This document shows, in pieces, positions 3,001 through 42,785 of a DNA stretch of 64,000 nt. The stretch's first letter is position 1. Each line of letters opens with the position of its first letter. Position numbers and translations under genes: made by a program. A model generated the notes under the pieces. That model had not been told where the DNA came from, searched no databases, and saw only the letters and a program-made list of their open reading frames with translations. This stretch comes from a virus. The stretch lies in the IMG/VR virus record IMGVR_UViG_3300037515_000188, positions 1 through 64,000 of that record, one strand, 5' to 3'.

Positions 3001-6000
3001 TTCTATTTTTTCTTAATATATTAATATTAAAAATTTTTGGAATACTCCATTTACCTGTATCAGTATAAATTTTAGGTTCGTATATTAATGCGTTAAGTAT
3101 TTTCATATTTTTGTGTTTCTTGCCATATAATATTACGCAGTGGCATTATTATATTATATATATCTTGATATATAGTTCTAGTGTTTCTTGCCATATAATA
3201 TTACGCAGTGGCATTATTATATTATATATATCCTGATATATAGTTCTAGTCTTTGATGATGGATAATTAATAAATATATCAGGATGTATTATGGATTTTA
3301 AAATTTTCATATTATGAGTTTAACAAAATAGAAAGAATAAATCAATATCTAATAATAGTGTATTTTAAAGATATTATATCATTCATCCGCATATGGAAAA
3401 GTGTTTTACTATATATATTTTGTCGTTTCGCCATTGGTAAAGATAAATTAATGACGAAATTATTTTTATTGGAGTGATTATAAATTAATGTATTTAATAT
3501 TTTCATAATAAATCAGTTTCTTGAAGTATTGCTAAAAAAATATTCCATTTCATGGTCCCTATAATAGATATTCTGTCATCGGAAGTTATTAAAGAACGTA
3601 TCCTTTCCGATAGTTTGGAAATTAATAATTCATGAAAGAATAATTGTTCAGTTGCGGGAATGATATTTAATATTTTCATGTTTTGTTATAATTTGATGCA
3701 TGTTCATTAGTAGTGGAAATATTATATCATAAATGTAAATAAATACTTTGTCATTAGTTATTATCTGGCTGGTTAATGATAAGGGTAATTCATAACTTAG
3801 TATTTTTTTATCGTATATACGAAAGGTTAATGAGGTTAATATTTTCATTATATACACTGTTTAAGAATAATGTGTTTTAAACCTAATATATCGGAAATAG
3901 GGGAAATTATTTTAGTATATAATTTTTCATCTTTCTTTATAATTGATTTAATAATAATTATTTTTTCATAAGATGGATTAAAAATTAATGTATTTAAAAT
4001 TTTCATAATAATAATTGATAATAGAGATAATTTAATAATAATTCTTTTTTCATAAGATGGATTAAAAATTAATGTATTTAAAATTTTCATAATATATATA
4101 TTTTAATATGGAAAATAAATAAATGAGTTTATTTTTCGTAATATATGCATACGTATTGGATATATTTGTTGTTTTATATTTGTTTGTATATCTTCTATTT
4201 TATGATATTTGAAACAATGTCCTTCATTATATGATGAATAAATAAATTTATGTATATATTCATACCATACGGAACCTGCATATAAATTAAGTTGTAAAAT
4301 TTTCATAATGATATGGAGTCTATAATATTGTTTTTAATCGGAAGAATATGAGCATCTATCGTTTGCTCTATAGTTACCATAGTCTTAAAATTATTCATGC
4401 CAAACATCTGTGATCCTATATTTTTCCATAAATAATTGTCTATTTTATTTATGGTTCTTAAAATTTTCATGTTATTCTTTGTGTATATTTTCTATTATAT
4501 TACGCCATATTGGAATTATTGCATGATATACATAATTAAACACATTCATATTAACGTTAAATGTATTTGCCGGAATATTAGATGGTAGTCCAATAAATAT
4601 AGTTTTTTGTATATTAATATCTAATTTATTACATGATAAATCATTTAATATTTTCATTATGATATTATAACATGATATTGATAATGAATCAAATCATAAT
4701 TGAGGAGAAACATATCTAAGAATAGTATATTTTAAAGATATTATATCAAGAATGGAGTCAATATATATTTTAGTATATACTTTTTGCATTTCTGGCAATG
4801 ATAATACATATAAATTAATAGTACTTTCTTTTTGGTAAGCTGGATTATAAATTAATGAATTAAGTATTTTCATGATTTTTTATAAATTCTATAATGTTAT
4901 TCTTCAATATGATGGATACGATATCATATATTTTTACTTCCATATTTGTTATTCCAAACACGATATATTGGTCAGATAGTTTCATATTGAGCATAATATC
5001 TATTCTATTATATATGATAGATTCTAAAATTTTCATCTTATAAGTATAACATAATGGAAATAATGAGTCAAATATTGATTATATAATGAATAGTGAAATG
5101 GGAGATATTATAGATCAATCTAATTTTTTACATATATAATGAATAGAGATGTGGGGTGTAGTGGTATTATGTGGGAAATATTGGAAATCTATTGGGGGAT
5201 GTATTGAAGAGTTGGGGAGCTTAGTCCGCCTTCAATCTCTCATTAATATTTCAAAAATTTTATCTTTTAAAAGTCCCCGTATATTAATCATATCATTATA
5301 AAATTCGTAAAATTTATATGTATAAAATTCAGGTGATACTACCATAGGTGGCTCTATTTTCCATATATCCTTGTTGTTAATGTGTAATTTCAAAATTTTC
5401 ATAATATTTCATTAAAAGTCCCCATATATTAATACGTAATTTAATCATATCATTTGATAATTCTGATGTATAAAATTTAGATGTTACTAAAATAGCTGGT
5501 TTTATTTTCCATATATGCTCCCATATATGTTTCTTCCATTCTCTGGTATTATGTAATTTCAAAATTTTCATAATATTTCATTAATTTTATCTCTTAAAAA
5601 TCCCCATATATTAATATGTAACTTAATTATATTATCATTAAAAAATTCAGATGTATAAAATACAGATGCTATTTTAATATATAGGTCTATTGCCCATATA
5701 TGTTTATTTATTTCTTTATTAATGTGTAATTTCAAAATCTTCATAATTTTAAAACTCTCATAATTTCATTGTATACGTAATTGCGCAATCCATATACAGT
5801 ATTATAAAATTCAAGAGTTAATGTAGGACATATATAATATTCCACCATCTCTTTTAGTTCAATTTTTTGAAATTTCAAAAGTTTCATTTATGTTATAAGT
5901 ATAGCATAATAGAGATAATAAGTCAATTTATTTTTTCATATTTTTCAATAAGTTAGTTTATTTTTTCCCTAGCCAGTAAAGAAATAATTTATAGAATTAT

Positions 6001-8752: not shown

Positions 8753-8961
8753 TTTTATATTATAACATACTAAGTAATTGATGTAAAGGACGATTTTTCA
8801 GTTTTCAAATGGAAAACCCTAAACGATTTTTCCATTTTGGTTTTCAAAACCCTAATTGTTTTTAATTAATTTATGTAATCTTTAATTCATGAATTGTTAA
8901 TGATTAAAAACTCGTTAACAGAGTATTGACAAATTTATTTAATTATGTAATACTATATTAT

Positions 8962-9255: not shown

Positions 9256-9760
9256 TTATAGTTAATTTATAAATTCTTTATATTCTATATTTTATATTGT
9301 AGTTTATATTATCATTAATCATTCCATTGGATATTATTAATGTTAATAATGATTCCATTGGAAATTCATTTATAATTTTTTAGTGGTGTGGTGTTATACT
9401 GTACTACAACACCAGTGTTGTTTTTTGCCACATATGGTGGTAAAAATACCACGGAATTTTAGTTCTGTTGTTTTTTTGCAACAGCTATGACAAAATAACT
9501 CCGGAACAACTATTCTGTTGTTTATTTGCAACATGTGTTGTAGTTATACCACACTTGTCTCGTTTTTGCAACTCCTTGTTGTTTATTTACAACAAATTTA
9601 TTTAAGATAAGCGAACCCCTTCCAGCGGGACGCTAGAATGATGATGATACTTACAGTATACCATAATGTAAAGATTATTTCAATGGGTTGACAAGATTGA
9701 TTTATTATGGTATTATATAGATAATGGGAGATATGAGTTTTCTAAAAGTTAAAAGCACAG

Positions 9761-9847
9761 ATTTCCCCCTGCTCGTGGCCTTCTCTCCGATGCTTCGCAG
9801 TCCTGTTGTTTATTGTTGGGAGCGGACTACTTCTTCTTCGACTTCAA
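9761..9847 (-). ncRNA. conserved 87-nt element, copy 1 (putative sRNA)
   Basis: Near-identical at 20500-20586 and 42574-42660. A - strand TTGCAT..TGgTATAAT promoter lies directly upstream; GTAGTCC/GGACTGC stem. Confidence 0.6.
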
Positions 9848-9944
9848 AACCATTATACCATAATAAGCAAAAAAATGCAAGGTGGATTTTTACTTTTATT
9901 TGTGATATGATAGGGGTTCTCAAAGTTGAAAGGAATTGATTGAA

Positions 9945-10109: not shown

Positions 10110-12159
10110 AAACATTAAAATTTAAATATATTTATAAGCTTCCTAGAATTACTAAATATTATTATAGTAATACTAATAATATTAATTTGGTCTTTTTACA
10201 ATTACATTATGATAAATTAGGAAATGTTGTAGGTAATCAGGTATATGAGCAATTAAAATTTCCATTATTGCAAGAGTTAGATAATGATAATAGAATTATA
10301 TTAAAAGGTACTGCATATAGAATTATATTAAAAGGTACTGCATGATATGAAAATTTTAATTGATAATAATAATTTGCAGGATTTTGATAATATTAGACAA
10401 TTGCTAATTAGAAATCATAAAAATAAATATTTTGATATGTATTTATTATATGAGACTGGAGTATTTTATAATCTTGGTTCATTGTGTGATATACTCCGAG
10501 AATCAATTGATGAAAACAATTGTTTTTAAAAATATGAAACAGTATTATGATATATGTTTTTCTAATGAGATATTTAGAAACTTATTAGGTACTAAATTAA
10601 GTGCTGGAATTAGTATTGAAATGAATCCTGTTAAAATTTCAATTGTTCAAATATTGTGTGAACAAATGAGAATGATTAATGAAACTAATAAATTCAATTC
10701 TTTCTAATTATGGTGATTTACCGCACTATAGTTTCTATAGTATAATTAAAAATTCAATAGGAGTTACAACATGTGTTTCAACATATAGTAAAATTCATAA
10801 TCAGTTACATCAATTGTATGTAATATGGTTAAATATATCTTGTGAAATGGAAAATTATTTTAGTGGGGAGAATTGATTAATGAAAACAATAAATTCAATT
10901 CTTACTGATTATGGTTATTTACCACATTATAATTCCTATCTTACAGTTAAAAATTCAATAGGAGTTACAACATGTGTTTCAATATATGGTGAAATTCATA
11001 ATCATTTATCTCAATTATATATATTATGGTCGGATATATCTTGTGAAATGGAAAATTATTTTGGTGGGGAGAATTGATTAATGAAACTATTAAAATTTAC
11101 ATATACTCATAATCTTCCTACCGTTCCTAGATATTATTATTGTTATATTACAATTGCGCACTCAATAGGAGTTACAAAATGTAATTCAATATATAGTAAA
11201 ATTCATAATCAGTTACGGCGACGGAATATATTATGGTTTTATATATCTTGTGAAATGGAAAATTGTTTTTTTATGCGGAGAATGATTAATGAAAATTATA
11301 AACACATTAAAATATTATGCCTGTTTTCATTACATTAGGTTCATTATGTAATATAATTAAAGAAGTAATTAATGAAAGTCATCCCTATTAAAAATATACA
11401 ACGTTGTTATTATGGGGCATATTGTTATTATGGGGTATATAATAATATTGAAAGATTAATAAGTAGTAAATTGTGTATTAACATTAATTTTAGAGTATAT
11501 CCTGTTAAGAGTTCAGTTGTTCAAATATTGGATGATCAAGTGAGAATGATTAGTGAAAACAATAAATTCAATTTTTGCTAATTATGATGGTTTAGTTTAT
11601 TATCATTACTGTATTACAGTTGAGAACCCAATAAGAGTTACAAAATATAAATCAATATATGATGAAGTTCATCATCAGTTGCATCGGCGCAATATACTAT
11701 GGTATGATATATCTTTTGAATTATGGTATAATATATCTTGTGAGATAGAAGAGTGGAAAAATTATTAATGAAGCCGTTACAATTACCTGCTCCTTGTTTA
11801 TTAGAATATTATTATGATATAATAATTAAAAAACTAGTGAAACCGGAAAAAATTAATTTAATAAAGAATACATTTGATTCGATAGAATATAGTCCTATAT
11901 TAATACTTGCTGAGATTACAAATAGGTTTAAACAATTAAAAATTATTCTAATATTATGAAAATTATAAACACATTAATGTATAATATAGAATTACGAAAA
12001 AAGATATATACAATTATACAAGAATATGATAAAAAATATGCATCCATGCGGTTTCCTTCTGTTCCGTATGATACAAATGATTCAGTTTCTAATAAGATGT
12101 ACCCGTTTACAAATATTGTAGTGGACGAATTATTAAGAATAATTCATAAAAGATATTGA
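10103..12159 (+). CDS. Array 2: ~11 tandem MK[TLIV][IL] micro-ORFs
   Basis: 10679, 10880, 11081 and 11553 are clear paralogs (SIGVT..SIY..IH.QL....LW..ISCEME); overlapping ATGA junctions. Confidence 0.75.
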
Positions 12160-12235
12160 CAAATAAAATAATTTAATATAATATGAAAAATAATATCATG
12201 AATTTTATAATATTTTTGTAAGTTTAAAAAAACAG
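12157..12235 (+). mobile_element. internally deleted IS607/TnpB-type miniature element (left end with promoter fused to right end)
   Basis: 5' half aligns with the promoter end of the 20061-20226 element; tatttttgtaagtttaaaa (12211-12229) is identical to 13709-13727. Confidence 0.5.
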
Positions 12236-12290
12236 TTGACAATTTAAAATTAATTTGGTAATATACATTTAACATTAAAAAGGTAAACAT

Positions 12291-13598: not shown

Positions 13599-13733
13599 AA
13601 AATATACCGGGAGTTTCTCGGGATTTTAAGCCTGCGGAGAACGGAGTTCACTGAATGAAAATTTGGTTAGCTGTTCAATGAAACAGGAATTTAACGGAAA
13701 ATATAAATTATTTTTGTAAGTTTAAAAGAACGG
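13599..13733 (+). mobile_element. TnpB omega-RNA-like right end / IS607-type miniature element (no tnpB)
   Basis: ACCG(T/G)GAGTT..GGATTTTAAGCCTGCGGAG...ATGAAACAGGAA...AAGTTTAAAAGAACGG resembles the tnpB 3' tail (T-V-S-S-T..A-C-G-E..M-K-Q-E) and an IS607-like GG end. Confidence 0.7.
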
Positions 13734-13789
13734 TGTAATGAATCGGATCATATAATCCCTAAACAGATGAAGTTATAGGAAATATATTT

Positions 13790-15113: not shown

Positions 15114-17558
15114 ATGAAGTTACATACTGAAAATCGATCATTAGAATCCGCTGGAATGAATATCAGCGTTGATTTTTCCGTTAAGATGAACGGGAAAGCA
15201 TTCAATGTATTGTCCAGTGGCGTTTATTCCGATGCAATTTCTTCAATCGTTAGAGAACTTTCATCTAATTGTTGTGATTCTCATATTGCTGCTAGAAAGG
15301 CTGATGTGCCATTTGAGGTATATTGTCCTACTGGATTCGATCCATATTTTGCGGTAAAGGATTTCGGTACTGGTCTGAGATATTTTAAATATCATGGACG
15401 GGTTAAATGTGAAATTGATGGGGAATCAACCATTTGTATTTCTGGTGATATCAGGAATACAATTGCTAATATCCGTGTGGTAATCCTTAACGGAAATACT
15501 ACGGTAGGAATTACTACGATTCTATATGATAACACTGCTGATGAAACAATTTTTCGTATTCCTTTAACCTTAAAGAATAATTCCACTATAGATGTGGAAT
15601 TTGATGATGCGCTGGTTTTGTACAGCACATATTTTGAATCGACCAAAGAGGATTCCAATGATTTTATTGGAGCCTTTGGATTAGGGTCAAAGACTCCATT
15701 TGCATATACTGATAATTTTATTGTTATTAATCGTTATAATGGTATTGCTCGCACTTATAATATTTTTACAAGTGAAAATGGAGTACCGCAAATTAATTTA
15801 ATGGGAATGTCCAATACTGATGAATGTAATGGACTGGAAGTTAAATTATCAATAGCAAATGATGACCATATTAAATTTAAAAATGCGATTAAAGAACAAT
15901 TGAAGTTTTTTGATCCACTTCCAAAAATTTATAATGATACAATTAATTTTCCAACAATACTTCATAAAGGTGAAAATTTCATCTTAATGGATGATACAGA
16001 AGTATCTGTTGATAATATGTATTATCGTGGATATAATGTAGTTATTGGGAATAATGCATATAATATACCATATAATGTTGTTTCCTTATCCAAGATTTTT
16101 AAACATAAACTTGTATTACGCTTGGATATAGGTGAAGTTATGGTAACAGCTTCTAGGGAAGCGATTAAAACTGATGAAGTTACTCGTGATATTATTATTG
16201 AACGATTCAACCGTGCTACCGAGGAATATACCAATTATATTCTGGATATGATTAGCAGGGATGATATGCTGGATTATGAAAAGGCTATTTTCTTAAATAA
16301 TAATTCTGATAGTATTGATCTTGATTTGGATTCCGTTCATAAGAATGTTGGTAATCCACATTATTTATATAACTCAAATGAAATAAGTATTCCTGTTAGT
16401 TTATGGGGATCATATATTTCTTTTGATTATACAGAAAAGGAAACTACTGATTTTTATGGTAATATTAAAACCGCATTCACAGTTAATCATGCGAGAGCAA
16501 AATATGTAAGTAGTGTTTGGTATGAATATGATTTGAATAAGAATAAATCAAAAAGAATTGGTTTAGGACAAAAAGAATGGGTTAATTTTTCTCCGCAATC
16601 TACATATCTTGTATTTATTCGAGATGATGCATATGCGTTTCATAAAAAAATTACTCAATATTTTGATACTAATAATACTAGTAAATGCAATAAAATTTTA
16701 ATAGTCGATTCATTTATAGAGGACGTTAATATTGAAGCTATTAATGAATTAGTATCATTTAATACTACATTTGTTAAGTTATCTGATATTAAATTACCTA
16801 AGACAGCTAGGATAGCGTGTAGTAATAAGTCTACTACTCCAATTGCCCGCATATTTACTATAGGAAAAGATAGCGGTTATATTTTTTCACGATTGACTGA
16901 TTGGGGTACGGTATATACATCGCTTAAAAAAATTGAAAATGAGAATGCATATGTCGTATCAAGTTATAGAGATAAATTTGATAATATTCAATATAATGAT
17001 ATAATGTTTTTCCAGACTAGTATTACTCTGGGATTAATTGATAAAAGAATTGAAATTTATGCTGTTCCCAAAGCAAAATATGAAAAAGCTGTTAAATATG
17101 GATTTAAACCTATTACTGATTTGATTAATGAATTAAAAACTAAATTTCATATACCAGTTGATTATGTAAATTATTTAGCGTTGAAAATTTTAATAGATGA
17201 TATTAATAAGACGCATGACATTTTTAAACTTTTTAAACATTTTAATGATTCTGACTGGAATAAGATTAATACAAATACCAATCTTTATATATTACATCGA
17301 ATTGTTGAAATATTTGAAAAAAGATATTTGAAAAAAGGAAGTATTTTCAATGATATCAAAAAATTAAGTAACTATATGGATACTGGTTGTATTCCAGAAC
17401 AAAGTGAGTTTGTAAAAAAGACTATTGACAAAGTAGCAGAACTTTGTTATGATGTAACTAGTTCAATGTTACTTTTAAATAACATTAATCATTATAGTTT
17501 TGGTGATAATGATGAAGAAAGAGATGCATTGATTAAATACGTAAATTTTATTGGTTAA
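15114..17558 (+). CDS. rIIA: RIIA-like protein (GHKL ATPase N-terminus)
   Basis: VRELSSNCCDSH, F.VKDFGTGL, YF.STK..SND.IG.FGLGSK.PFAYTD, V..SRE.I; adjacent to rIIB. Confidence 0.92.
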   Translation: MKLHTENRSLESAGMNISVDFSVKMNGKAFNVLSSGVYSDAISSIVRELSSNCCDSHIAARKADVPFEVYCPTGFDPYFAVKDFGTGLRYFKYHGRVKCEIDGESTICISGDIRNTIANIRVVILNGNTTVGITTILYDNTADETIFRIPLTLKNNSTIDVEFDDALVLYSTYFESTKEDSNDFIGAFGLGSKTPFAYTDNFIVINRYNGIARTYNIFTSENGVPQINLMGMSNTDECNGLEVKLSIANDDHIKFKNAIKEQLKFFDPLPKIYNDTINFPTILHKGENFILMDDTEVSVDNMYYRGYNVVIGNNAYNIPYNVVSLSKIFKHKLVLRLDIGEVMVTASREAIKTDEVTRDIIIERFNRATEEYTNYILDMISRDDMLDYEKAIFLNNNSDSIDLDLDSVHKNVGNPHYLYNSNEISIPVSLWGSYISFDYTEKETTDFYGNIKTAFTVNHARAKYVSSVWYEYDLNKNKSKRIGLGQKEWVNFSPQSTYLVFIRDDAYAFHKKITQYFDTNNTSKCNKILIVDSFIEDVNIEAINELVSFNTTFVKLSDIKLPKTARIACSNKSTTPIARIFTIGKDSGYIFSRLTDWGTVYTSLKKIENENAYVVSSYRDKFDNIQYNDIMFFQTSITLGLIDKRIEIYAVPKAKYEKAVKYGFKPITDLINELKTKFHIPVDYVNYLALKILIDDINKTHDIFKLFKHFNDSDWNKINTNTNLYILHRIVEIFEKRYLKKGSIFNDIKKLSNYMDTGCIPEQSEFVKKTIDKVAELCYDVTSSMLLLNNINHYSFGDNDEERDALIKYVNFIG

Positions 17559-17572
17559 ACACGGAGAATTTT

Positions 17573-18826
17573 GTGAATACTGCATATACAATCACTGATA
17601 AAAGTATTGTACTTATGATTGATGGTAAAACTCAGATAATCAATCGAACTGATGATAGATTTTCTGATGTTTATGATGCCATTCGAGATAAGAATTTTGA
17701 ATCCATTCCTGCTATCCTTGATATTAAAGGTAAATTGATTTCTGATAGTTGTGGTGGATTATATTTATTGAACGGGGTACTTCATTGTAATGACTATAAA
17801 ATTGAGCCATTACTTGCGTCAAGAATTATTCGGATATATAAAGAAAGATTTGATCTTGTTCCAATTACGTTATTCCTTGAAAATCTTATGAGTAATCCAT
17901 CGGAACGTTCGAGGGAACAATTATATGGATTTATCGAAGCATGTAATTTACCTATTACTGCTGATGGGCATTTTCTTGCGTATAAAATGGTTACTTCGGT
18001 TTTTAAGGATATATATACTGGTACTATGGATAATAGTATTGGTTCAATTGTCGAAGTTCCTAGAGAAAATGTTGATCCTGATCCTAACAGAACATGTTCT
18101 AGAGGATTGCATTTTTGTTCTGAAGGATACCTTGGATCATATGGTACTAAAAGTTCATCGCAGGTTGTAATCGTGAAACTTAATCCGCGTGATGTAGTTT
18201 CTATTCCAATTGATTATAACAATGCCAAAGGTCGCGCATGTCGTTATGAAGTAGTTGATACTATTTCATGGGATGATAAAATCAAACCGTTATATACTGA
18301 TGAATATTCTGATAATGTATTAGAAGATAAATCGGAGTCTAATACTAATAAGCGGTGGGAACTTCGTCGTACTAGTGATGGGGAACTGATAGAAGCATTT
18401 ACTACTCGTGCGGAATCTCGTGTAGTTCGTAGAATAAATGGATATGATGACCATTATATATTAGATACGGATACTCAAGATGTTATAGCTGGGACTCCAT
18501 ATTCTGATTATCTTGATGATTACGAAGATGATGAATGTGTAGAGGAATATAATTACGCTGATGATGCCGATGACCCGGAATATAATGAAGATAACGATGA
18601 GGGGTATCTTGGTGATGATGAATATGAAGAGGAATATAATTGTGAAGATGACTATGAGACATATGAAGATGACGATAGTGATCTGCGATGGGTAGTTTAT
18701 AATATTCATGATGGTGGTACAATAGATTCATTTTATAGTCGAGTTGATGCTCGTGCTTTACGTAAAAGCTTAGGATACAGTGATTATTATATTTGGGATA
18801 GGATAAATAATAAAATTGTTGTATAG
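17573..18826 (+). CDS. rIIB: RIIB-like protein with an acidic C-terminal extension
   Basis: FLENLM.NPS, LPIT.DG.FLAYK, VD.DP.RTCS.GLHFCS, NP.DVVSIP.DYNNAK.R.CRYEVV. Confidence 0.92.
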   Translation: MNTAYTITDKSIVLMIDGKTQIINRTDDRFSDVYDAIRDKNFESIPAILDIKGKLISDSCGGLYLLNGVLHCNDYKIEPLLASRIIRIYKERFDLVPITLFLENLMSNPSERSREQLYGFIEACNLPITADGHFLAYKMVTSVFKDIYTGTMDNSIGSIVEVPRENVDPDPNRTCSRGLHFCSEGYLGSYGTKSSSQVVIVKLNPRDVVSIPIDYNNAKGRACRYEVVDTISWDDKIKPLYTDEYSDNVLEDKSESNTNKRWELRRTSDGELIEAFTTRAESRVVRRINGYDDHYILDTDTQDVIAGTPYSDYLDDYEDDECVEEYNYADDADDPEYNEDNDEGYLGDDEYEEEYNCEDDYETYEDDDSDLRWVVYNIHDGGTIDSFYSRVDARALRKSLGYSDYYIWDRINNKIVV

Positions 18827-18938: not shown

Positions 18939-19002
18939 CTATTGTTAATTTGATCATAATATGGTATAATATAATTACTAAATTATTGGAGGATATAATA
19001 GA

Positions 19003-19278
19003 ATGATAAAAGATGATGGAATGATTGAATCAGAATATGAAGACACTGAATGTATTTGCAAAGGTAATTGGCGCGCTATTGTACGGGAGTCTGAACATTT
19101 GATTGGTAAGAGATTTCATTGTGACAGAGACGGTAATGATTATACATTTTTTGGTCTTGTCCATGGTGATGATGATTATTATTATGGTATGTGTAGTGCT
19201 GGACGCCCCGTTGTATTAGCTAGTTGTGTAGGAGATTTACAGGGAAATGGATTTACTTTAATTCCAGATGATGAGTAA
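19003..19278 (+). CDS. hypothetical protein
   Basis: Promoter, GGAG RBS, 91 aa. Confidence 0.8.
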   Translation: MIKDDGMIESEYEDTECICKGNWRAIVRESEHLIGKRFHCDRDGNDYTFFGLVHGDDDYYYGMCSAGRPVVLASCVGDLQGNGFTLIPDDE

Positions 19279-19342
19279 TATAGGGTAGTTTCTTTGGATT
19301 TTAAGTCTATAAGAAACATATAAACTATTTTCATAAGTTTAA
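19278..19342 (+). mobile_element. degenerate remnant of the omega-RNA-like element
   Basis: agtttctttggattttaagtct...tataaactattttcataagtttaa aligns to both ends of 13599-13733. Confidence 0.4.
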
Positions 19343-19365
19343 TCTATAATGGAGTTTAATAGATA

Positions 19366-19593
19366 ATGATTCTATTAGAAATTATATCTTGGCTAATAAA
19401 ACAAGTATTTCAAATTGTAGTATTATTCCTTCCGATTTGTGCATTAGGGGCAATCCTATGGGGAACATGGATGCTCTTAGTATGGGTAGTCGATTCTCCT
19501 ATATTGTTTGTTATTTTATCCTTAGCTGTCTTTTATTTTGGTTATGAATTTTTTGTATATTTATTAAAGACTATGAACAGAAAATTGTTATAA
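19366..19593 (+). CDS. membrane protein (2 TM)
   Basis: Hydrophobic 75-aa ORF. Confidence 0.75.
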   Translation: MILLEIISWLIKQVFQIVVLFLPICALGAILWGTWMLLVWVVDSPILFVILSLAVFYFGYEFFVYLLKTMNRKLL

Positions 19594-19597
19594 TATT

Positions 19598-19710
19598 TCA
19601 TCCTAACAAAACGGATTTGTGGAAGGTGTACTATACTTTTCGGGAGTAACCAACGTTAGGATGATGATGAAGTGGATGGTTACACATAACATTGGGTGGG
19701 CTTTGTTATC
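19598..19710 (+). ncRNA. putative pseudoknotted small RNA
   Basis: tcatcctaac/gttaggatga stem; loop GTAACCA is complementary to downstream TGGTTAC; TGnTATAAT directly upstream. Confidence 0.45.
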
Positions 19711-20060
19711 AAACTCTAAACGATTTTTCAGTTTTCGTTTTCAAAACCCTAATTGTTTTACCCCATATATTTAATACTATAAGAATTGTATTTTAAACCA
19801 TTTTATATCACTTAACAACATTGTTTAGACGTGTTTAAACATGTATTACATTTAATCAATATCCTAATTTGAAATTGATTTAAAACTATAAATTGTATTT
19901 CAAACTATTTAGTCTTACATTATATTACATTACATATGAATTATTTAAAGTTATTAATGACAATTATAAATTGAATTCTATCTTAAATAAGATAGAATTC
20001 ATTGTAATCAAATAATGTATATCAAATAATGTATATCAAATACTATGAACTGCACCATGA

Positions 20061-20226
20061 CCGTTCTTTTAAACTTACGAAAATAATTTATATTTTCCGT
20101 TAAATTCCTGTTTCAATGAACGGCTAACCAAATTTTCATTCGGTGAACTCCGTTCTCCACAGGCTTAAAATTCCGTGGAACTCACGGTATATTTCTCATG
20201 TTATATTAACATATTCTATTTGTCAA
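20061..20226 (-). mobile_element. omega-RNA-like miniature element with its own sigma70 promoter
   Basis: Reverse complement highly similar to 13599-13733; TTGACA at 20226-20221 with -10 just upstream of the scaffold. Confidence 0.7.
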
Positions 20227-20499
20227 GAATAAATTTTATCCATTAATATTTCCATTGGAAATTCATTGATAATTTTTATAGCGTATTGGTGTTATACTAT
20301 ACTATAACACTAGTGTTATACTGTCCTACAACACTACTGTTGTTTTTCCACAACATATCCATCATGTTGTTTTTATACAACATGGACCTGTTATCATTCA
20401 CAGCATAACATAAAAATTATTTTAATATAAGTATTGACTTTATATGGAAAATATGATATAATTATAGTAACAAGATTTTTCTAAAAATGAAAAACCTGA

Positions 20500-20586
20500 G
20501 TTTCCCTCTGCTCATGGCCTTCTCTCCGATACTTCGCAGTCCTGTTGTTTATTGTTGGGAGCGGACTACTTCTTCTTCGACTTCAA
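20500..20586 (-). ncRNA. conserved 87-nt element, copy 2
   Basis: Near-identical to 9761-9847; - strand TTGACA promoter upstream. Confidence 0.6.
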
Positions 20587-20704
20587 GTATATTATCTCAT
20601 ATTATAGGATAAATGTCAATCTTAAAAATTTATTTAATTGATAATATCTCCTTGCAAATCAACGCTACTTATAGTATACTAATTTTTCTTTAATTCATTT
20701 AGAG

Positions 20705-21457
20705 TTGTTTACTGTGAAACTGCTTAATGTAGATAAGAATTCCAAAACAGTTAAAGGTCAAAAGAAAGGATATCTTACCGGAATTCTATATCTTTCTCCG
20801 GCTACCTTATCCGGGATAAATATTTGTCCTATGACAAAACTTGCAGGATGTGAAAAACTTTGTTTGAATTATACCGGACATTCTGCCATGTCTAAAAATA
20901 ATTCTACATTTGCTGCACTTGATGGTACTTTAATACCTGATAATAGACAGCAACATGGTAGATTAAATCGTACACAATTTTTTCATTCTGATCGTGAAGG
21001 ATTTTTAAATCAATTAAAGAATGAAATTAATAAATTAATCCACAAAGGTAAACGTGATAATCTTATTCCAGTAATTAGATTAAATGGTACATCTGATATT
21101 AGATGGGAGAATATCAAATTTAATGATGGGGAAACCCTATTTGAAAAATTTCCAAATATTACATTTTATGATTATACCAAATTGAATAATCGTAAAAATA
21201 TTCCGGATAATTATTATCTGTTATGGTCATATTCAGAGGCTAGTAAGAAATATGCTGCTATGCGGCCTGAAAATATGAATTGGGTAGTAGTATTTAAAGA
21301 TAGTAATTTTCCTGAAACATTTTTAGGTAGAAAAGTTATTGATGGGGATGAAAATGATTTACGTTTTTTAGACCCTGATAATATCGTGGTAGGAGTAAAA
21401 GCTAAAGGCCCTGCCAAAAAAGATACTAGTGGATTTGTTATTAGACTTGAAAATTAG
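20705..21457 (+). CDS. GP88-family phage protein (radical-SAM-like fold)
   Basis: CP...GC...CL, IRLNGTSDIRWE, FYDYTK, DGDE.DLRFLD, G.KAKG.AKKD.SGFV. Confidence 0.8.
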   Translation: MFTVKLLNVDKNSKTVKGQKKGYLTGILYLSPATLSGINICPMTKLAGCEKLCLNYTGHSAMSKNNSTFAALDGTLIPDNRQQHGRLNRTQFFHSDREGFLNQLKNEINKLIHKGKRDNLIPVIRLNGTSDIRWENIKFNDGETLFEKFPNITFYDYTKLNNRKNIPDNYYLLWSYSEASKKYAAMRPENMNWVVVFKDSNFPETFLGRKVIDGDENDLRFLDPDNIVVGVKAKGPAKKDTSGFVIRLEN

Positions 21458-21512
21458 TAATAGACATGGTATAATTAAACATCATAATTATTAACTTTTA
21501 TGGAGTAATGTA

Positions 21513-29059: not shown

Positions 29060-29087
29060 TTGACATATTTATAAATACGAGTATAAT
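29060..29087 (+). promoter_or_regulatory. sigma70 promoter with an embedded T4-type late box
   Basis: TTGACA-16-TATAAT with TATAAATA in the spacer. Confidence 0.7.
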
Positions 29088-29230
29088 GTCAATATATTCC
29101 CCATGCTTAGATTGATAAGGATGAGGTCAATTAAAATTTCTTATCCCATCCGGAAGGGACCGGTTAGCTACAATAAAAAAGTAATACCCATCTAAAGTAG
29201 CTACGGATGGGACTTTTCAAAGATGATAAT

Positions 29231-29312
29231 ACCGTGAGTTCCACGGGATTTTAAGCCTGCGGAGAACGGAGTTCACTGAATGAAAATTTAGTCAGCCGTT
29301 CGATGAAACAGG
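29231..29312 (+). mobile_element. omega-RNA-like scaffold lacking the element right end
   Basis: Near-identical to 13606-13687, then diverges after GAAACAGG. Confidence 0.65.
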
Positions 29313-29520
29313 TGCTGATCCATTTAGGGGATTAGAATCAATGGTGGTAATAGAACCGCGCGATTGATACAGTTACATTGTTTCAGACAACTCTGGAACA
29401 GATGGTAGAAGGGCATTATGTTCTTCGTGATCATCGGGGGTGTGACATTTTATAGGTTTACCAGCGTCACATCAGGTAAATGCGGCAGGATGGGGCTACT
29501 TACCAACAGTTTTAAGGGTG

Positions 29521-29642
29521 GGTATTGTCATATAATTGGATTGGAAGGCTTGACAAAAATTTAACTGGCGTTACACAGTAAATACAAATCAAGCGACCGT
29601 GACGGGTAAACCGGGATCACATTCAAATCTCGGGACAATATT
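29521..29642 (+). ncRNA. pseudoknotted RNA motif, copy A
   Basis: CTTGACAAAAAT...CGTTAC...TACAAATCAAGCGACCGTGACG.GGTAAACCGG inside a gtattgtc/gacaatat stem. Confidence 0.75.
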
Positions 29643-29673
29643 TACTCCTTATAGGTTTTGTAATATATGCGCG

Positions 29674-29788
29674 AATCGTTGTTCTATGAGGACTTGACAA
29701 AAATCTAATTGGTGTCACCCAGTAGATTACAAATCAAGCGACCGTGACAAGGTAAACCGGGATATTATCAATCTCGGGAACAACGATT
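29674..29788 (+). ncRNA. pseudoknotted RNA motif, copy B
   Basis: Same core with TGTCAC/GTGACA inside an aatcgttgttc/gaacaacgatt stem. Confidence 0.75.
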
Positions 29789-29918
29789 TTAGTTTATTGC
29801 TCATGGTGTAATTTGATTCGATGTCGTAAACTTGAATCTTATCACCATGAGCAATTTTATACTTTCATTTATTGAATTAATATGTTATAATGCTCTTTCA
29901 TAACATGGATTACACAAC

Positions 29919-31025
29919 ATGTTCCAGCAAAAACTCTATCAGAATTTAATGCAATTGGTAACAACCAATGAGGCATTTTATTATGTGGATCATGTAATCA
30001 ATAATGTAATCTATCGTGTATTCACCTATCGGTTAGCATCCTATACGGATTTTCTTAATCCTGATGCATTAGAATGCAGAGGACATATGTTCCGTTTAGA
30101 TGGTGATGCCGTTAAATTGGTTTCATTGCCATTTACAAAATTTTTTAACATAAATGAAAACCCAATGACTATGGATTTAGATTTATCGTCAATAAATTTT
30201 GCTCATGATAAAAGAGATGGATCATTAATAGCCACTTTCAAGCATGATGATATGATATGTTTGAAATCAAAAACTGCCATTGCATCGGATCAAGCATTAG
30301 ATGCCACTAAAGTAATGCATGCTGATCAACGGTTATTTGATGTAATTACAGATTTTGTAAATCAGGATTATACGGTAATTATGGAATACACTGCTCCTGA
30401 TAATCGTATTGTATTACCATATCAAAATAAAGAATTGAAAATTCTTGGAGTACGTAACAATAAGCATGGGGAATATATTGACTATGAGCAGTTATACGCT
30501 GATATTCCTGAATACATGGTAGATGATTATACCGCGTCTATCAATGGAACTGTAGAGGATTTCATTGCGTCTATTCCGTCTATGAAAGGGATTGAAGGAT
30601 TTGTAATTGGATTACCTTCAGGACAACGTATAAAAATAAAGACTGAAGAATATCTTGCATTGCATCGTGCAAAAGATTCTGTATATTCCAATAAACGTCT
30701 TTTTGAAGTGGTATTGAATGAAGCATCAGATGATTTGCGTTCCATGTTTCATGATGATGAATATGTAATCAATCGTATTACTGAAATGGAAAATATTGTT
30801 GGTCATGCATATAATGGTTTAGTGAATTCTGTAGAACAATATTATTCCAATAATAAAGAACTTGATCGTAAATCTTATGCAATTAAAGGACAACAGGAAT
30901 TAACCAAAACCGCATTTAATCTTGCTATGATGAAATACACTGGTAAGAAACCAGATTATAAAAATATGTTGTTGAAAAATTTCAAGGATTATATTGATGA
31001 TAATGAGCAGGATGAAACTATATGA
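29919..31025 (+). CDS. rnlA: RNA ligase 1 (T4 gp63/RnlA family)
   Basis: ECRG.MF, PF.KFFN.NENP, KRDGSLI, EY.AP.NRIV, IEGFV, KIKT..YL.LH. Confidence 0.92.
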   Translation: MFQQKLYQNLMQLVTTNEAFYYVDHVINNVIYRVFTYRLASYTDFLNPDALECRGHMFRLDGDAVKLVSLPFTKFFNINENPMTMDLDLSSINFAHDKRDGSLIATFKHDDMICLKSKTAIASDQALDATKVMHADQRLFDVITDFVNQDYTVIMEYTAPDNRIVLPYQNKELKILGVRNNKHGEYIDYEQLYADIPEYMVDDYTASINGTVEDFIASIPSMKGIEGFVIGLPSGQRIKIKTEEYLALHRAKDSVYSNKRLFEVVLNEASDDLRSMFHDDEYVINRITEMENIVGHAYNGLVNSVEQYYSNNKELDRKSYAIKGQQELTKTAFNLAMMKYTGKKPDYKNMLLKNFKDYIDDNEQDETI

Positions 31026-37164: not shown

Positions 37165-37328
37165 CAACTGTAACTAAATATGATACTATATTTGAATGAT
37201 GGCTAGCATCTAGCATCATTTCAGTGAACTCCGTTCTCCGCAGGCGTAATCGGTGCCGGACATTCAGGCACAGTTGGCAGATACCTAGAAACTGCCATAA
37301 TTATATTTTTTAATACGGAATATATATT

Positions 37329-41716: not shown

Positions 41717-41817
41717 TCACTAAATAATAGTCGAAAATCCAAACGATTTTTCAGTTTTCGTTTTCAAAACCCTAATTGTTTTTTGACTTTTTGTGCTTAA
41801 TAGGATAAGATAATATC

Positions 41818-42138: not shown

Positions 42139-42573
42139 ATAATTTAAGTATATTTTATCTAAATTATAATTTAAGAACATGATGTAAGTTTATGTCAATG
42201 ATGAAAATGTATTAATGATCTATCAATCTTATTCTTTATTATTTGCAATTTAAAACTCCATTATAATTCCATTGGGAATTTTTAATGATTTTTTAGCCTA
42301 CCCCGCCCGATAATATTCCATTTGATTATATTGAAAAAGTCTAATATAACCAAAAGTTATATAACATAATTTTAACATAATTTTAACATAATTTTAACAT
42401 AATCAAAAGTTATAATCTCCCATAGCAAGCCATAGGCATAATTTACGCATTATGCGCACCGTCTTATATAATATCATAAAACAATATAAAATGTAAGGGG
42501 TTGACAAGCTTGATTTATTATGGTATTATATAGATAATGGGAGATGTGAGTTTCCTAAAAGTTAAAAGTACGG

Positions 42574-42660
42574 ATTTCCGCCTGCTCATGGCCTTCTCTC
42601 CGATGCTTCGCAGTCCTATTGTTTATTGTTGGGAGCGGATTGCTTCTTCTTCGATTTCAA
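42574..42660 (-). ncRNA. conserved 87-nt element, copy 3
   Basis: Near-identical to 9761-9847. Confidence 0.6.
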
Positions 42661-42785
42661 AATCATTATATCATAATAAGTAAAAAAATACAAGGGTTTT
42701 ATTCATGATAACATTTTTCATTGACCATATAGGAAAAAAATGTTATACTTGGCTAATTAATGGAATTATTCAGGAAAATTAAATA

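Follow-up and report, generated by a model that had tools for sequence, protein, structure and literature searches.

In IS607-family elements such as ISFba1, the guide RNA of the TnpB nuclease (reRNA) is built of a 37-nt 5′ flank, a 73-nt core, and a 64-nt 3′ flank, after which the guide follows, and the core corresponds to the RAGATH-18 motif (Ren et al. 2024, PMC11061315). The recombination catalysed by IS607 transposases takes place at a GG core dinucleotide (PMC10690162). Guide RNAs that are separated from a nuclease gene have also been described. Stand-alone omegaRNAs serve compatible effectors in trans (Altae-Tran et al. 2021, as related in PMC10691335), and PATE-like minimal elements of the IS200/IS605 type encode omegaRNAs whose function depends on a TnpB provided in trans (Meers et al. 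2023, PMC10055086).

The window analysed here is the first 64 kb (64,000 nt) of a 109,848-bp IMG/VR virus record with ~30% G+C, which is ~47% complete according to CheckV. The public runs in which this record occurs are all sediment metagenomes, none of those listed is an RNA run, and five contain ~95% of the sampled words of a 2.5-kb test stretch (19000-21500). Its source is a large uncultured sediment phage. The window carries a family of short cassettes which, judging from their alignment with other phage sequences, are tnpB-less, shortened copies of the omegaRNA (reRNA) scaffold from an IS607-family right end. Gene-less guide RNAs as a kind are already described, and the present case mainly adds detail; new here are the trimmed scaffold, the way it is joined to phage promoters with no left end, the number of copies, and the lack of the cognate nuclease in the available half-genome. 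It provides a clean example of TnpB guide RNAs that outlive and outnumber the nuclease gene inside a virus, with the guide RNA trimmed to a 130-nt scaffold and rewired to phage promoters.

Like the ISFba1 reRNA, the cassettes comprise a 5′ hairpin, an internal-loop core (CCUG-GGAG ... UGAA-CAGGAA), a 3′ flank, and a predicted guide, and their right end also finishes in GG. The cognate TnpB of related phages matches ISDra2 TnpB at E 2e-64 and, over its full length, the IS607 TnpB of ISFba1 (8IAZ) at E 1e-52, and an IS607 serine TnpA is found in relatives. The conserved loop letters CCUGYGGAG ... UGAA(A/G)CAGGAA agree with the RAGATH-18 consensus, but the threshold of this Rfam family (RF03064) is not reached here: the best score is 27.0 bits (E 0.054) against a gathering cut-off of 44.9, for one copy on the IMG/VR contig L012, where the sub-threshold match covers the CCUG-GGAG ... 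CGAUGAA-CAGGAA loop letters. RAGATH-18 gave no match for the window copies or the full-length relatives even at E up to 10, and no other Rfam family matched the cassettes. Two further differences concern the architecture: the ISFba1 scaffold lies downstream of the gene, whereas the scaffold of the phage relatives overlaps the tnpB reading frame, and the window copies have neither any tnpB nor one of the stem-loops.

The likeness to other gene-less guide RNAs is also partial. As far as the account in PMC10691335 goes, the stand-alone omegaRNAs resemble the cassettes in having no adjacent effector or transposase, in having their own flank as the guide, and in their expected action in trans. However, in that account they reside in genomes with a compatible effector and look mobilized with their ends, whereas the cassettes have no compatible effector in the available half of the genome, no left end, and a phage promoter fused to the scaffold. 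PATEs are likewise protein-less derivatives of TnpB elements that keep the RNA and depend on TnpB from elsewhere, but they retain both ends and are moved by Y1 TnpA (PMC10055086); the cassettes are of IS607-type (serine TnpA) origin, with no left end seen.

Copies of the scaffold in the phage record

Three intact and three decayed copies of the scaffold are present in the window (Table 1). The pattern TTTAAGCCTGYGGAGAACGGAGTTCAC, which represents a 27-nt core, has four matches in the window and none in 100 shuffles. A BLAST search of the whole 109.8-kb record with positions 13599-13735 as a query returned five matches, the query itself included: 20060-20194 (-) with 93% identity, 29229-29312 with 92%, 37220-37249 (-) with 97% over a 30-nt core, and 12206-12236 with 88% (E 1.3e-5), which is a 3′ piece of the scaffold. 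A repeat search of the sequence returns the same copy pairs. The covariance model R1, built from a 17-sequence alignment (A2, see below), scores the window copies at 149, 141, and 93 bits and finds nothing else in the record. The repeat family described in an earlier note on this DNA is real. The full copies reported there at 13599-13733 (+) and 20061-20226 (-) are placed by R1 at 13604-13733 and 20061-20190, the TTGACA promoter ascribed to the second one is indeed present (TTGACA-17-TAACAT at 20226-20198 (-)), and both predicted guides had been read correctly, as checked against the sequence. The copy at 29231-29312, by contrast, had been taken for scaffold-only but is in fact a full-length variant (29229-29358, 93 bits, model positions 1-155). 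As for the remnants, those given as 12157-12235 and 37220-37250 were recovered by BLAST, while the one at 19278-19342 was missed by both BLAST and the covariance model and is placed by hand and pairwise alignment only.

Table 1. Scaffold copies and their associated features in the window, together with the TnpB loci found elsewhere in the record
Feature	Position	Strand	Description
Cassette 1	13604..13733	+	complete mini-omegaRNA scaffold; R1 140.8 bits, E 7e-27; P1 hairpin, RAGATH-18-like core, shortened 3′ flank, end GAACGG (alignment A2)
Cassette 1 predicted guide TGTAATGAATCGGATCATAT	13734..13753	+	flank directly after right end; similarity between copies stops after GAACGG
Cassette 2	20061..20190	-	complete mini-omegaRNA scaffold; R1 149.3 bits, E 1e-28
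Cassette 2 promoter TTGACA-17-TAACAT	20198..20226	-	ends 7 nt before scaffold start
Cassette 2 predicted guide TCATGGTGCAGTTCATAGTA	20041..20060	-	flank after right end
Cassette 2 terminator-like hairpin	19972..20001	-	13 bp + T-rich tail; 39 nt past guide
Cassette 3 (variant scaffold)	29229..29358	+	R1 93.2 bits over model positions 1-155
Cassette 3 would-be guide	29359-29378	+	predicted from position
Relic	12156..12236	+	cassette promoter + decayed 5′ end joined to last ~30 nt of scaffold; core deleted
Relic	19278..19342	+	decayed P1 + AUUUUAAG joined to last ~35 nt of scaffold; core deleted
Relic	37191..37276	-	P1-like hairpin + 5′ strand of core (30 nt at 97%); 3′ half missing
Intact TnpB	68077-69240	-	outside window; other family
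Intact TnpB	92613-93773	+	outside window; other family
Truncated tnpB stub	83770-83895 (G000:C1)	-	retained omegaRNA region; the record's G+C-rich family

The three intact copies differ in their surroundings. Cassette 1 has no good promoter of its own. Cassette 2 lies on the strand opposite to the neighbouring genes, and its fold has a predicted energy of -34.7 kcal/mol (z -3.5). Over its first 84 nt, cassette 3 matches cassette 1 at 92% identity; in place of the 3′ flank it has a different hairpin, and it terminates in UAAUAGAACCG.

Two sequence features were noticed beside the cassettes. The gap between the guide and the terminator-like hairpin of cassette 2 (20002-20040 (-)) contains 2.5 tandem copies of a 14-nt unit, UUUGAUAUACAUUA. 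Around cassette 3, there is an ORF-free stretch of ~860 nt (including 29060-29228 and 29359-29918) with a G+C content of ~0.36, which extends from a promoter at 29060 to a T4 Rnl1-like RNA ligase gene (29919-31025) and bears long hairpins (CCCAUCCG..CGGAUGGG) in its first 170 nt.

Homology to tnpB 3′ ends and the fold of the scaffold

IMG/VR was scanned with the last 18 nt of the repeat, as was a genome collection. Besides this record, 15 contigs contain the 18-nt 3′ end: 12 come from IMG/VR, and three are short MAG contigs. The scaffold is present in 13 of them as a longer version (155-161 nt) that forms the tail of a tnpB ORF, which encodes 405-414 aa where it is complete and has its stop codon 30 nt ahead of GAACGG; the scaffold comes after the RuvC-III motif (..DRDLNASLNLK..) of this ORF. 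An IS607 transposase is encoded directly upstream of tnpB in L015 (NF033518, 189 bits against a cut-off of 110), and the start of a MerR-like tnpA was read by eye upstream of tnpB in G008. Most relatives are tnpB-only, with an IS607 TnpA in at least two records. All 20 copies diverge immediately past GAACGG; because similarity stops exactly there, the flank occupies the guide position.

Thus, the scaffold shared with tnpB 3′ ends, the TnpA genes in two records, and the GAACGG boundary identify the cassettes, at the level of sequence, as homologues of tnpB-attached, IS607-type omegaRNA right ends. The omega-RNA-like right end of an IS607-type element proposed in the earlier note is borne out in this respect: tnpB-associated ends do match, the tnpB-attached scaffold being present in 13 other contigs, two of the relatives' records carry the IS607 TnpA, and the flank beyond GAACGG stands in the guide position. 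The full element is common in other large AT-rich phages. The three MAG contigs are short, AT-rich, and binned into unrelated MAGs; as they all carry the full tnpB form, they give no clue to a host. The left end in L015 is cut off by the end of the contig, and the tnpB-only relatives have nothing in common upstream of the start codon, so that these sequences yield no TAM. In three phage contigs (L016, L020, and L024), tnpB begins within the end of a DNA methyltransferase gene (..NLNRQFIGIEKEKEYYDICLERLK), its start codon overlapping the final codons of that gene; this 5′ junction is identical in all three, and the flanks past the right end differ.

The alignment A2, which underlies R1, combines five cassettes with 12 full-length scaffolds and contains 62 invariant columns shared by the cassettes and the full-length RNAs. 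Across the 17 sequences, 16 of the 35 predicted pairs change on both sides while remaining paired. P1 appears as CCGGG/CUCGG, CCGAA/UUCGG, GGGAA/UUCCC, or CUGGC/GUCAG, the long-range pairing as CCUG/CAGG or CUUC/GAAG, and another stem as GAUGGG/CCCGUC or GAACGG/CYGUUC. By these comparisons, the fold of the scaffold is conserved and covarying. The stems named in the earlier note are likewise present, and their variation preserves pairing (CCGGG/CUCGG versus CCGUG/CACGG; GAACGG opposite CUGUUC or CCGUUC). The covariance-model comparison proposed there had a divided outcome: the Rfam model stays below its cut-off, whereas R1, whose alignment includes the tnpB-attached scaffolds, matches the cassettes.

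When the cassettes are considered alone, helices 1-4 are 98-100% paired, all variable paired columns keep pairing, and in P1 a double change from G-U to U-A retains the pair; altogether, 95% of the cells are paired versus 27-52% with the partners slid. Fixed changes in the cassettes affect only two of the 72 columns without variation in the full-length RNAs, and these two make up a compensating replacement of a C-G by an A-U pair. In this small data set, differences between the five cassettes are not depleted in the invariant columns (8/72 vs 9/58, p = 0.6).

Promoter fusion and spread of the shortened form

In comparison with the full element, the window cassettes are devoid of tnpB, of the left end, and of one 25-nt stem-loop of the 3′ flank, the latter deletion being common to all mini copies. 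The intact copies follow one precise architecture, which combines a predicted transcription start at the 5′ end of the scaffold with the same 25-nt deletion. Most copies begin a few bases after an ordinary phage early-type promoter, which takes the place of tnpB; the hexamer pattern of such promoters gives 39 promoter-like sites in the record versus 18.8 in shuffles.

The same fusion is found on L012, a 4.4-kb contig with four further promoter + mini-scaffold units in tandem. Over the promoter and scaffold (~175-190 nt), cassette 2 is ~86-90% identical to three of these units, and L012 and the record have nothing else in common over the available sequence. Several tRNA sequences accompany the L012 units: a tRNA-Thr(UGU) minus its first three bases (3157-3223 (-); Rfam tRNA 46.6 bits, model positions 4-67) lies directly after a cassette, as does the 3′ part of another tRNA with its T-arm, acceptor strand, and CCA (3600-3648 (-)), and an intact tRNA-Ala lies between cassettes. 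The L012 cassette was considered as a leader of a tRNA, as a tRNA in split or permuted form, and as a self-cleaving ribozyme, but these candidates were dropped once the tnpB-attached homologues emerged.

Cassette 1 is located upstream of the genes 15114-17558 and 17573-18826. In G006, G007, and G010, a full tnpB-omegaRNA occupies the same place relative to the homologues of these genes, so that the locus either held the element or repeatedly receives it. The promoter-bearing units and cassette 1 have the 25-nt deletion in common, as well as the bases that immediately precede the scaffold; the mini-cassettes are therefore all of one lineage.

The similarity of the cassette upstream region to the left-end region of G008 is not above that of shuffles. 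G008 is an 87-kb phage record that carries a full tnpA-tnpB element and also an internally deleted IS607 derivative (G008:C1:56996-57099, L034), in which the start of tnpA (~60 nt, MNKKILSISDAASILGVSDET..) runs into the terminal 80 nt of the omegaRNA/right end. Thus, the cassettes keep the RNA, whereas the G008 derivative, with the tnpA start joined to the right end, keeps both ends. The cassettes do not have the two transposon ends of MITE- or PATE-type elements, their upstream sequence being a phage promoter; the earlier suggestion of non-autonomous MITEs therefore does not hold in its classical form, the cassettes being unlike the one recoverable left-end region, that of G008.

One may ask whether the cassettes are simply functionless relics, left after the loss of the IS607-type nuclease gene, with right-end pieces spread by T4-like recombination and now decaying, and with promoters that are merely common intergenic ones. 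Several observations would be expected in this case: three of the six copies are broken, cassette 1, which has no promoter, occupies the syntenic position of the full element in relatives, the functionally invariant columns show no depletion of substitutions, G008 shows that the element family leaves internally deleted stubs in phages, and neither the cognate TnpB (in the record) nor a target (in the guide searches) was found. Decay alone does not readily account for variation in paired columns of the intact cassettes that always keeps the pair, including the G-U to U-A change in P1, nor for a precise architecture and a 25-nt deletion shared by two contigs otherwise unrelated over the available sequence, nor for cassette 2, which runs neatly from promoter to terminator in the opposite orientation to its neighbours. 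We consider functionless relics a serious rival explanation, second in likelihood. If the scaffold fails to load TnpB, the case documents the decay of an element in phage genomes.

Nucleases, guides, and a probable role in trans

The window encodes no nuclease, as the earlier note correctly stated. In the whole 109.8-kb record (~47% complete), PF07282/PF01385 are detected in three places only, none of the cognate TnpB family (Table 1); the full-record search that had been recommended did reveal two TnpBs and one stub, but not the nuclease that the cassettes would need. The resident TnpBs are ~30% identical to the cognate protein over ~220 aa, and R1 detects neither their omegaRNAs nor their 3′ ends anywhere in the record. 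The resident G+C-rich omegaRNAs share with the cassettes the layout and short core motifs (UGCGGGAACGAG vs UGCGGAGAACGGAG; GUGAGGCAGGGAU vs GUGAAGCAGGAAU). Cross-use of the resident TnpBs with the cassettes is conceivable, but nothing supports it. The resident proteins read ..IIIGDVSS.. and ..IIVGDVSS.. in place of the RuvC-II ..LEDL.. glutamate of the cognate and ISDra2-type proteins, so their catalytic Glu may be relocated or lost.

The tnpB stub repeats the arrangement of the cassettes. A TTGACA-17-TATAAT promoter ~190 nt further upstream (~84.1 kb) points into its retained 3′ portion of ~310 nt, and the stub is a second, independent unit of a promoter and an orphan omegaRNA, which belongs to a different TnpB family.

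The search for targets had no positive outcome. For the seven guides, the record and 268 kb of related loci contain neither another match with up to 5 mismatches nor a 12-nt seed match, and guide 1 has no other match in the record or IMG/VR. The sole outside match of guide 2 (19/20) falls in a capsid-sized gene of L032, a GC-rich IMG/VR contig. This match was rejected as a target because so large a collection should contain a few chance matches of an 18-mer. For the tRNA-Thr "guide" of L012, the only match was the guide itself, and two L012 "guides" are truncated tRNA genes and hence plain flank. The targets with a common TAM that the earlier note had recommended looking for were found neither in the record nor in the related loci or IMG/VR.

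On balance, we lean towards the cassettes being non-autonomous, probably selfish orphan omegaRNA genes that need the cognate TnpB in trans. Their homology to tnpB-attached right ends, the covarying fold, the GG boundary, the promoter-scaffold fusion, and the recurrence in L012 speak for such a role. Against it stand the absence of the cognate tnpB from the record and of any target beyond chance, the three relics, the undepleted substitutions at invariant columns, the plain flank in two L012 "guides", and cassette 1, which, like a leftover, has no promoter and takes the place of the complete element of relatives. The cassette RNAs would be made during infection and would act only when the cognate TnpB is supplied in trans, whether from the unsequenced half of the phage or from co-infecting relatives with the full element. 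The ~20 nt past GAACGG would then direct the cutting of matching DNA beside the adjacent motif of the nuclease, the guides being whatever flank each copy landed beside, and a selfish hitch-hiker on the nuclease could have its own retention or copying favoured via break repair. Should the mini-scaffold load the cognate TnpB, it would be a naturally minimized guide for an IS607-type editor, and guide-only elements might live off the nucleases of other phages.

A more specific proposal, that the phage has shed the nuclease gene and that its small set of promoter-driven, guide-only genes load onto the TnpB of co-infecting relatives, many of which carry the full element, and thereby cut a rival genome or copy the cassettes into it, seems unlikely to us. 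If true, it would amount to a parasite of a parasite at the RNA level, a natural instance of guides that spread in the absence of both effector and transposon ends.

A programmed weapon is less likely than a selfish role. The cassettes might form a domesticated multi-guide library that aims TnpB or a nuclease-dead, TldR-like relative, own or borrowed, at host or rival-phage DNA. The guides of TldR, a nuclease-dead TnpB, lie beside the effector gene and match a defined promoter target. They resemble the window cassettes as TnpB-type guide RNAs in a fixed, non-transposon use, but no effector adjoins the cassettes and no defined target was found for them. Features that would suit a library are the several intact guides, which differ in 3′ sequence and each have a promoter, the four tandem units of L012, and the similar layout and core motifs in the omegaRNAs of the two resident TnpBs. 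In one sediment run, moreover, the summed contig depth over the 3′ flank of the scaffold is ~20x as high as for the contigs of the phage itself, which weakly hints at further genomes with this right end in the sample. A library is, however, at odds with the empty target searches in the record, related loci, and IMG/VR, with guides that resemble arbitrary flank (a promoter region, truncated tRNA genes), with resident TnpBs of another family that are so distant from the cognate protein, and with relics, which argue against strong retention. The "domesticated multi-guide system" using a TnpB encoded elsewhere, as envisaged in the earlier note, is therefore unsupported, and we hold it to be quite improbable.

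The scaffold could also have been reused for purposes other than guiding, either as a stabilizing 5′ leader on a mobile promoter cassette or as a decoy that soaks up the TnpB of rival elements. In five of the seven units, the scaffold lies between a promoter and same-strand downstream genes or tRNAs, and in T4-type phages promoter cassettes are known to move as units (PeSL elements), which is in keeping with a leader. Yet no gene follows cassette 2, which is closed by a terminator, the nucleotides that are kept are those conserved in the nuclease-bound RNA, and independent evidence for either role is absent; such reuse has very little probability in our estimation.

Empty sites were sought in relatives and in population data. 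No close relatives of the phage were found in IMG/VR, INPHARED (near and distant modes), or the JGI metagenome collection, a related-locus search with the neighbouring 814-aa protein gave no relative, and two metagenome scans with cassette-specific patterns gave no match. In four sediment runs, contigs are interrupted at every cassette, which is usual for repeats, and no convincing empty site was seen among them. One contig joins 19759 to 20250, with only 28 letters on the short side. It was rejected as an empty site and read as cross-mapping, probably from a paralogous locus, since the two repeat families on either side of the joint also occur around loci at 8.8 kb and 41.7 kb.

One of these repeats, 49 nt long, occurs at 8814-8862, 19711-19759, and 41734-41782, each time ~600-800 nt upstream of a copy of another unit (9682-9882, 20421-20621, and 42495-42695; 92% and 67% identity). 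In this unit, a conserved stretch of ~130 nt with a higher G+C content (..CUGCUCAUGGCCUUCUCUCCGAUGCUUCGCAGUCCUG..GGGAGCGGACUACUUCUUCUUCGAC..) comes after a promoter (TTGACAAG..-TATTAT). Neither the copy at 9682-9882 nor the others match any Rfam family at the gathering score, and together they look like another family of small-RNA genes. At the 19.7-kb locus, cassette 2 sits between the 49-nt repeat and the ~130-nt unit.
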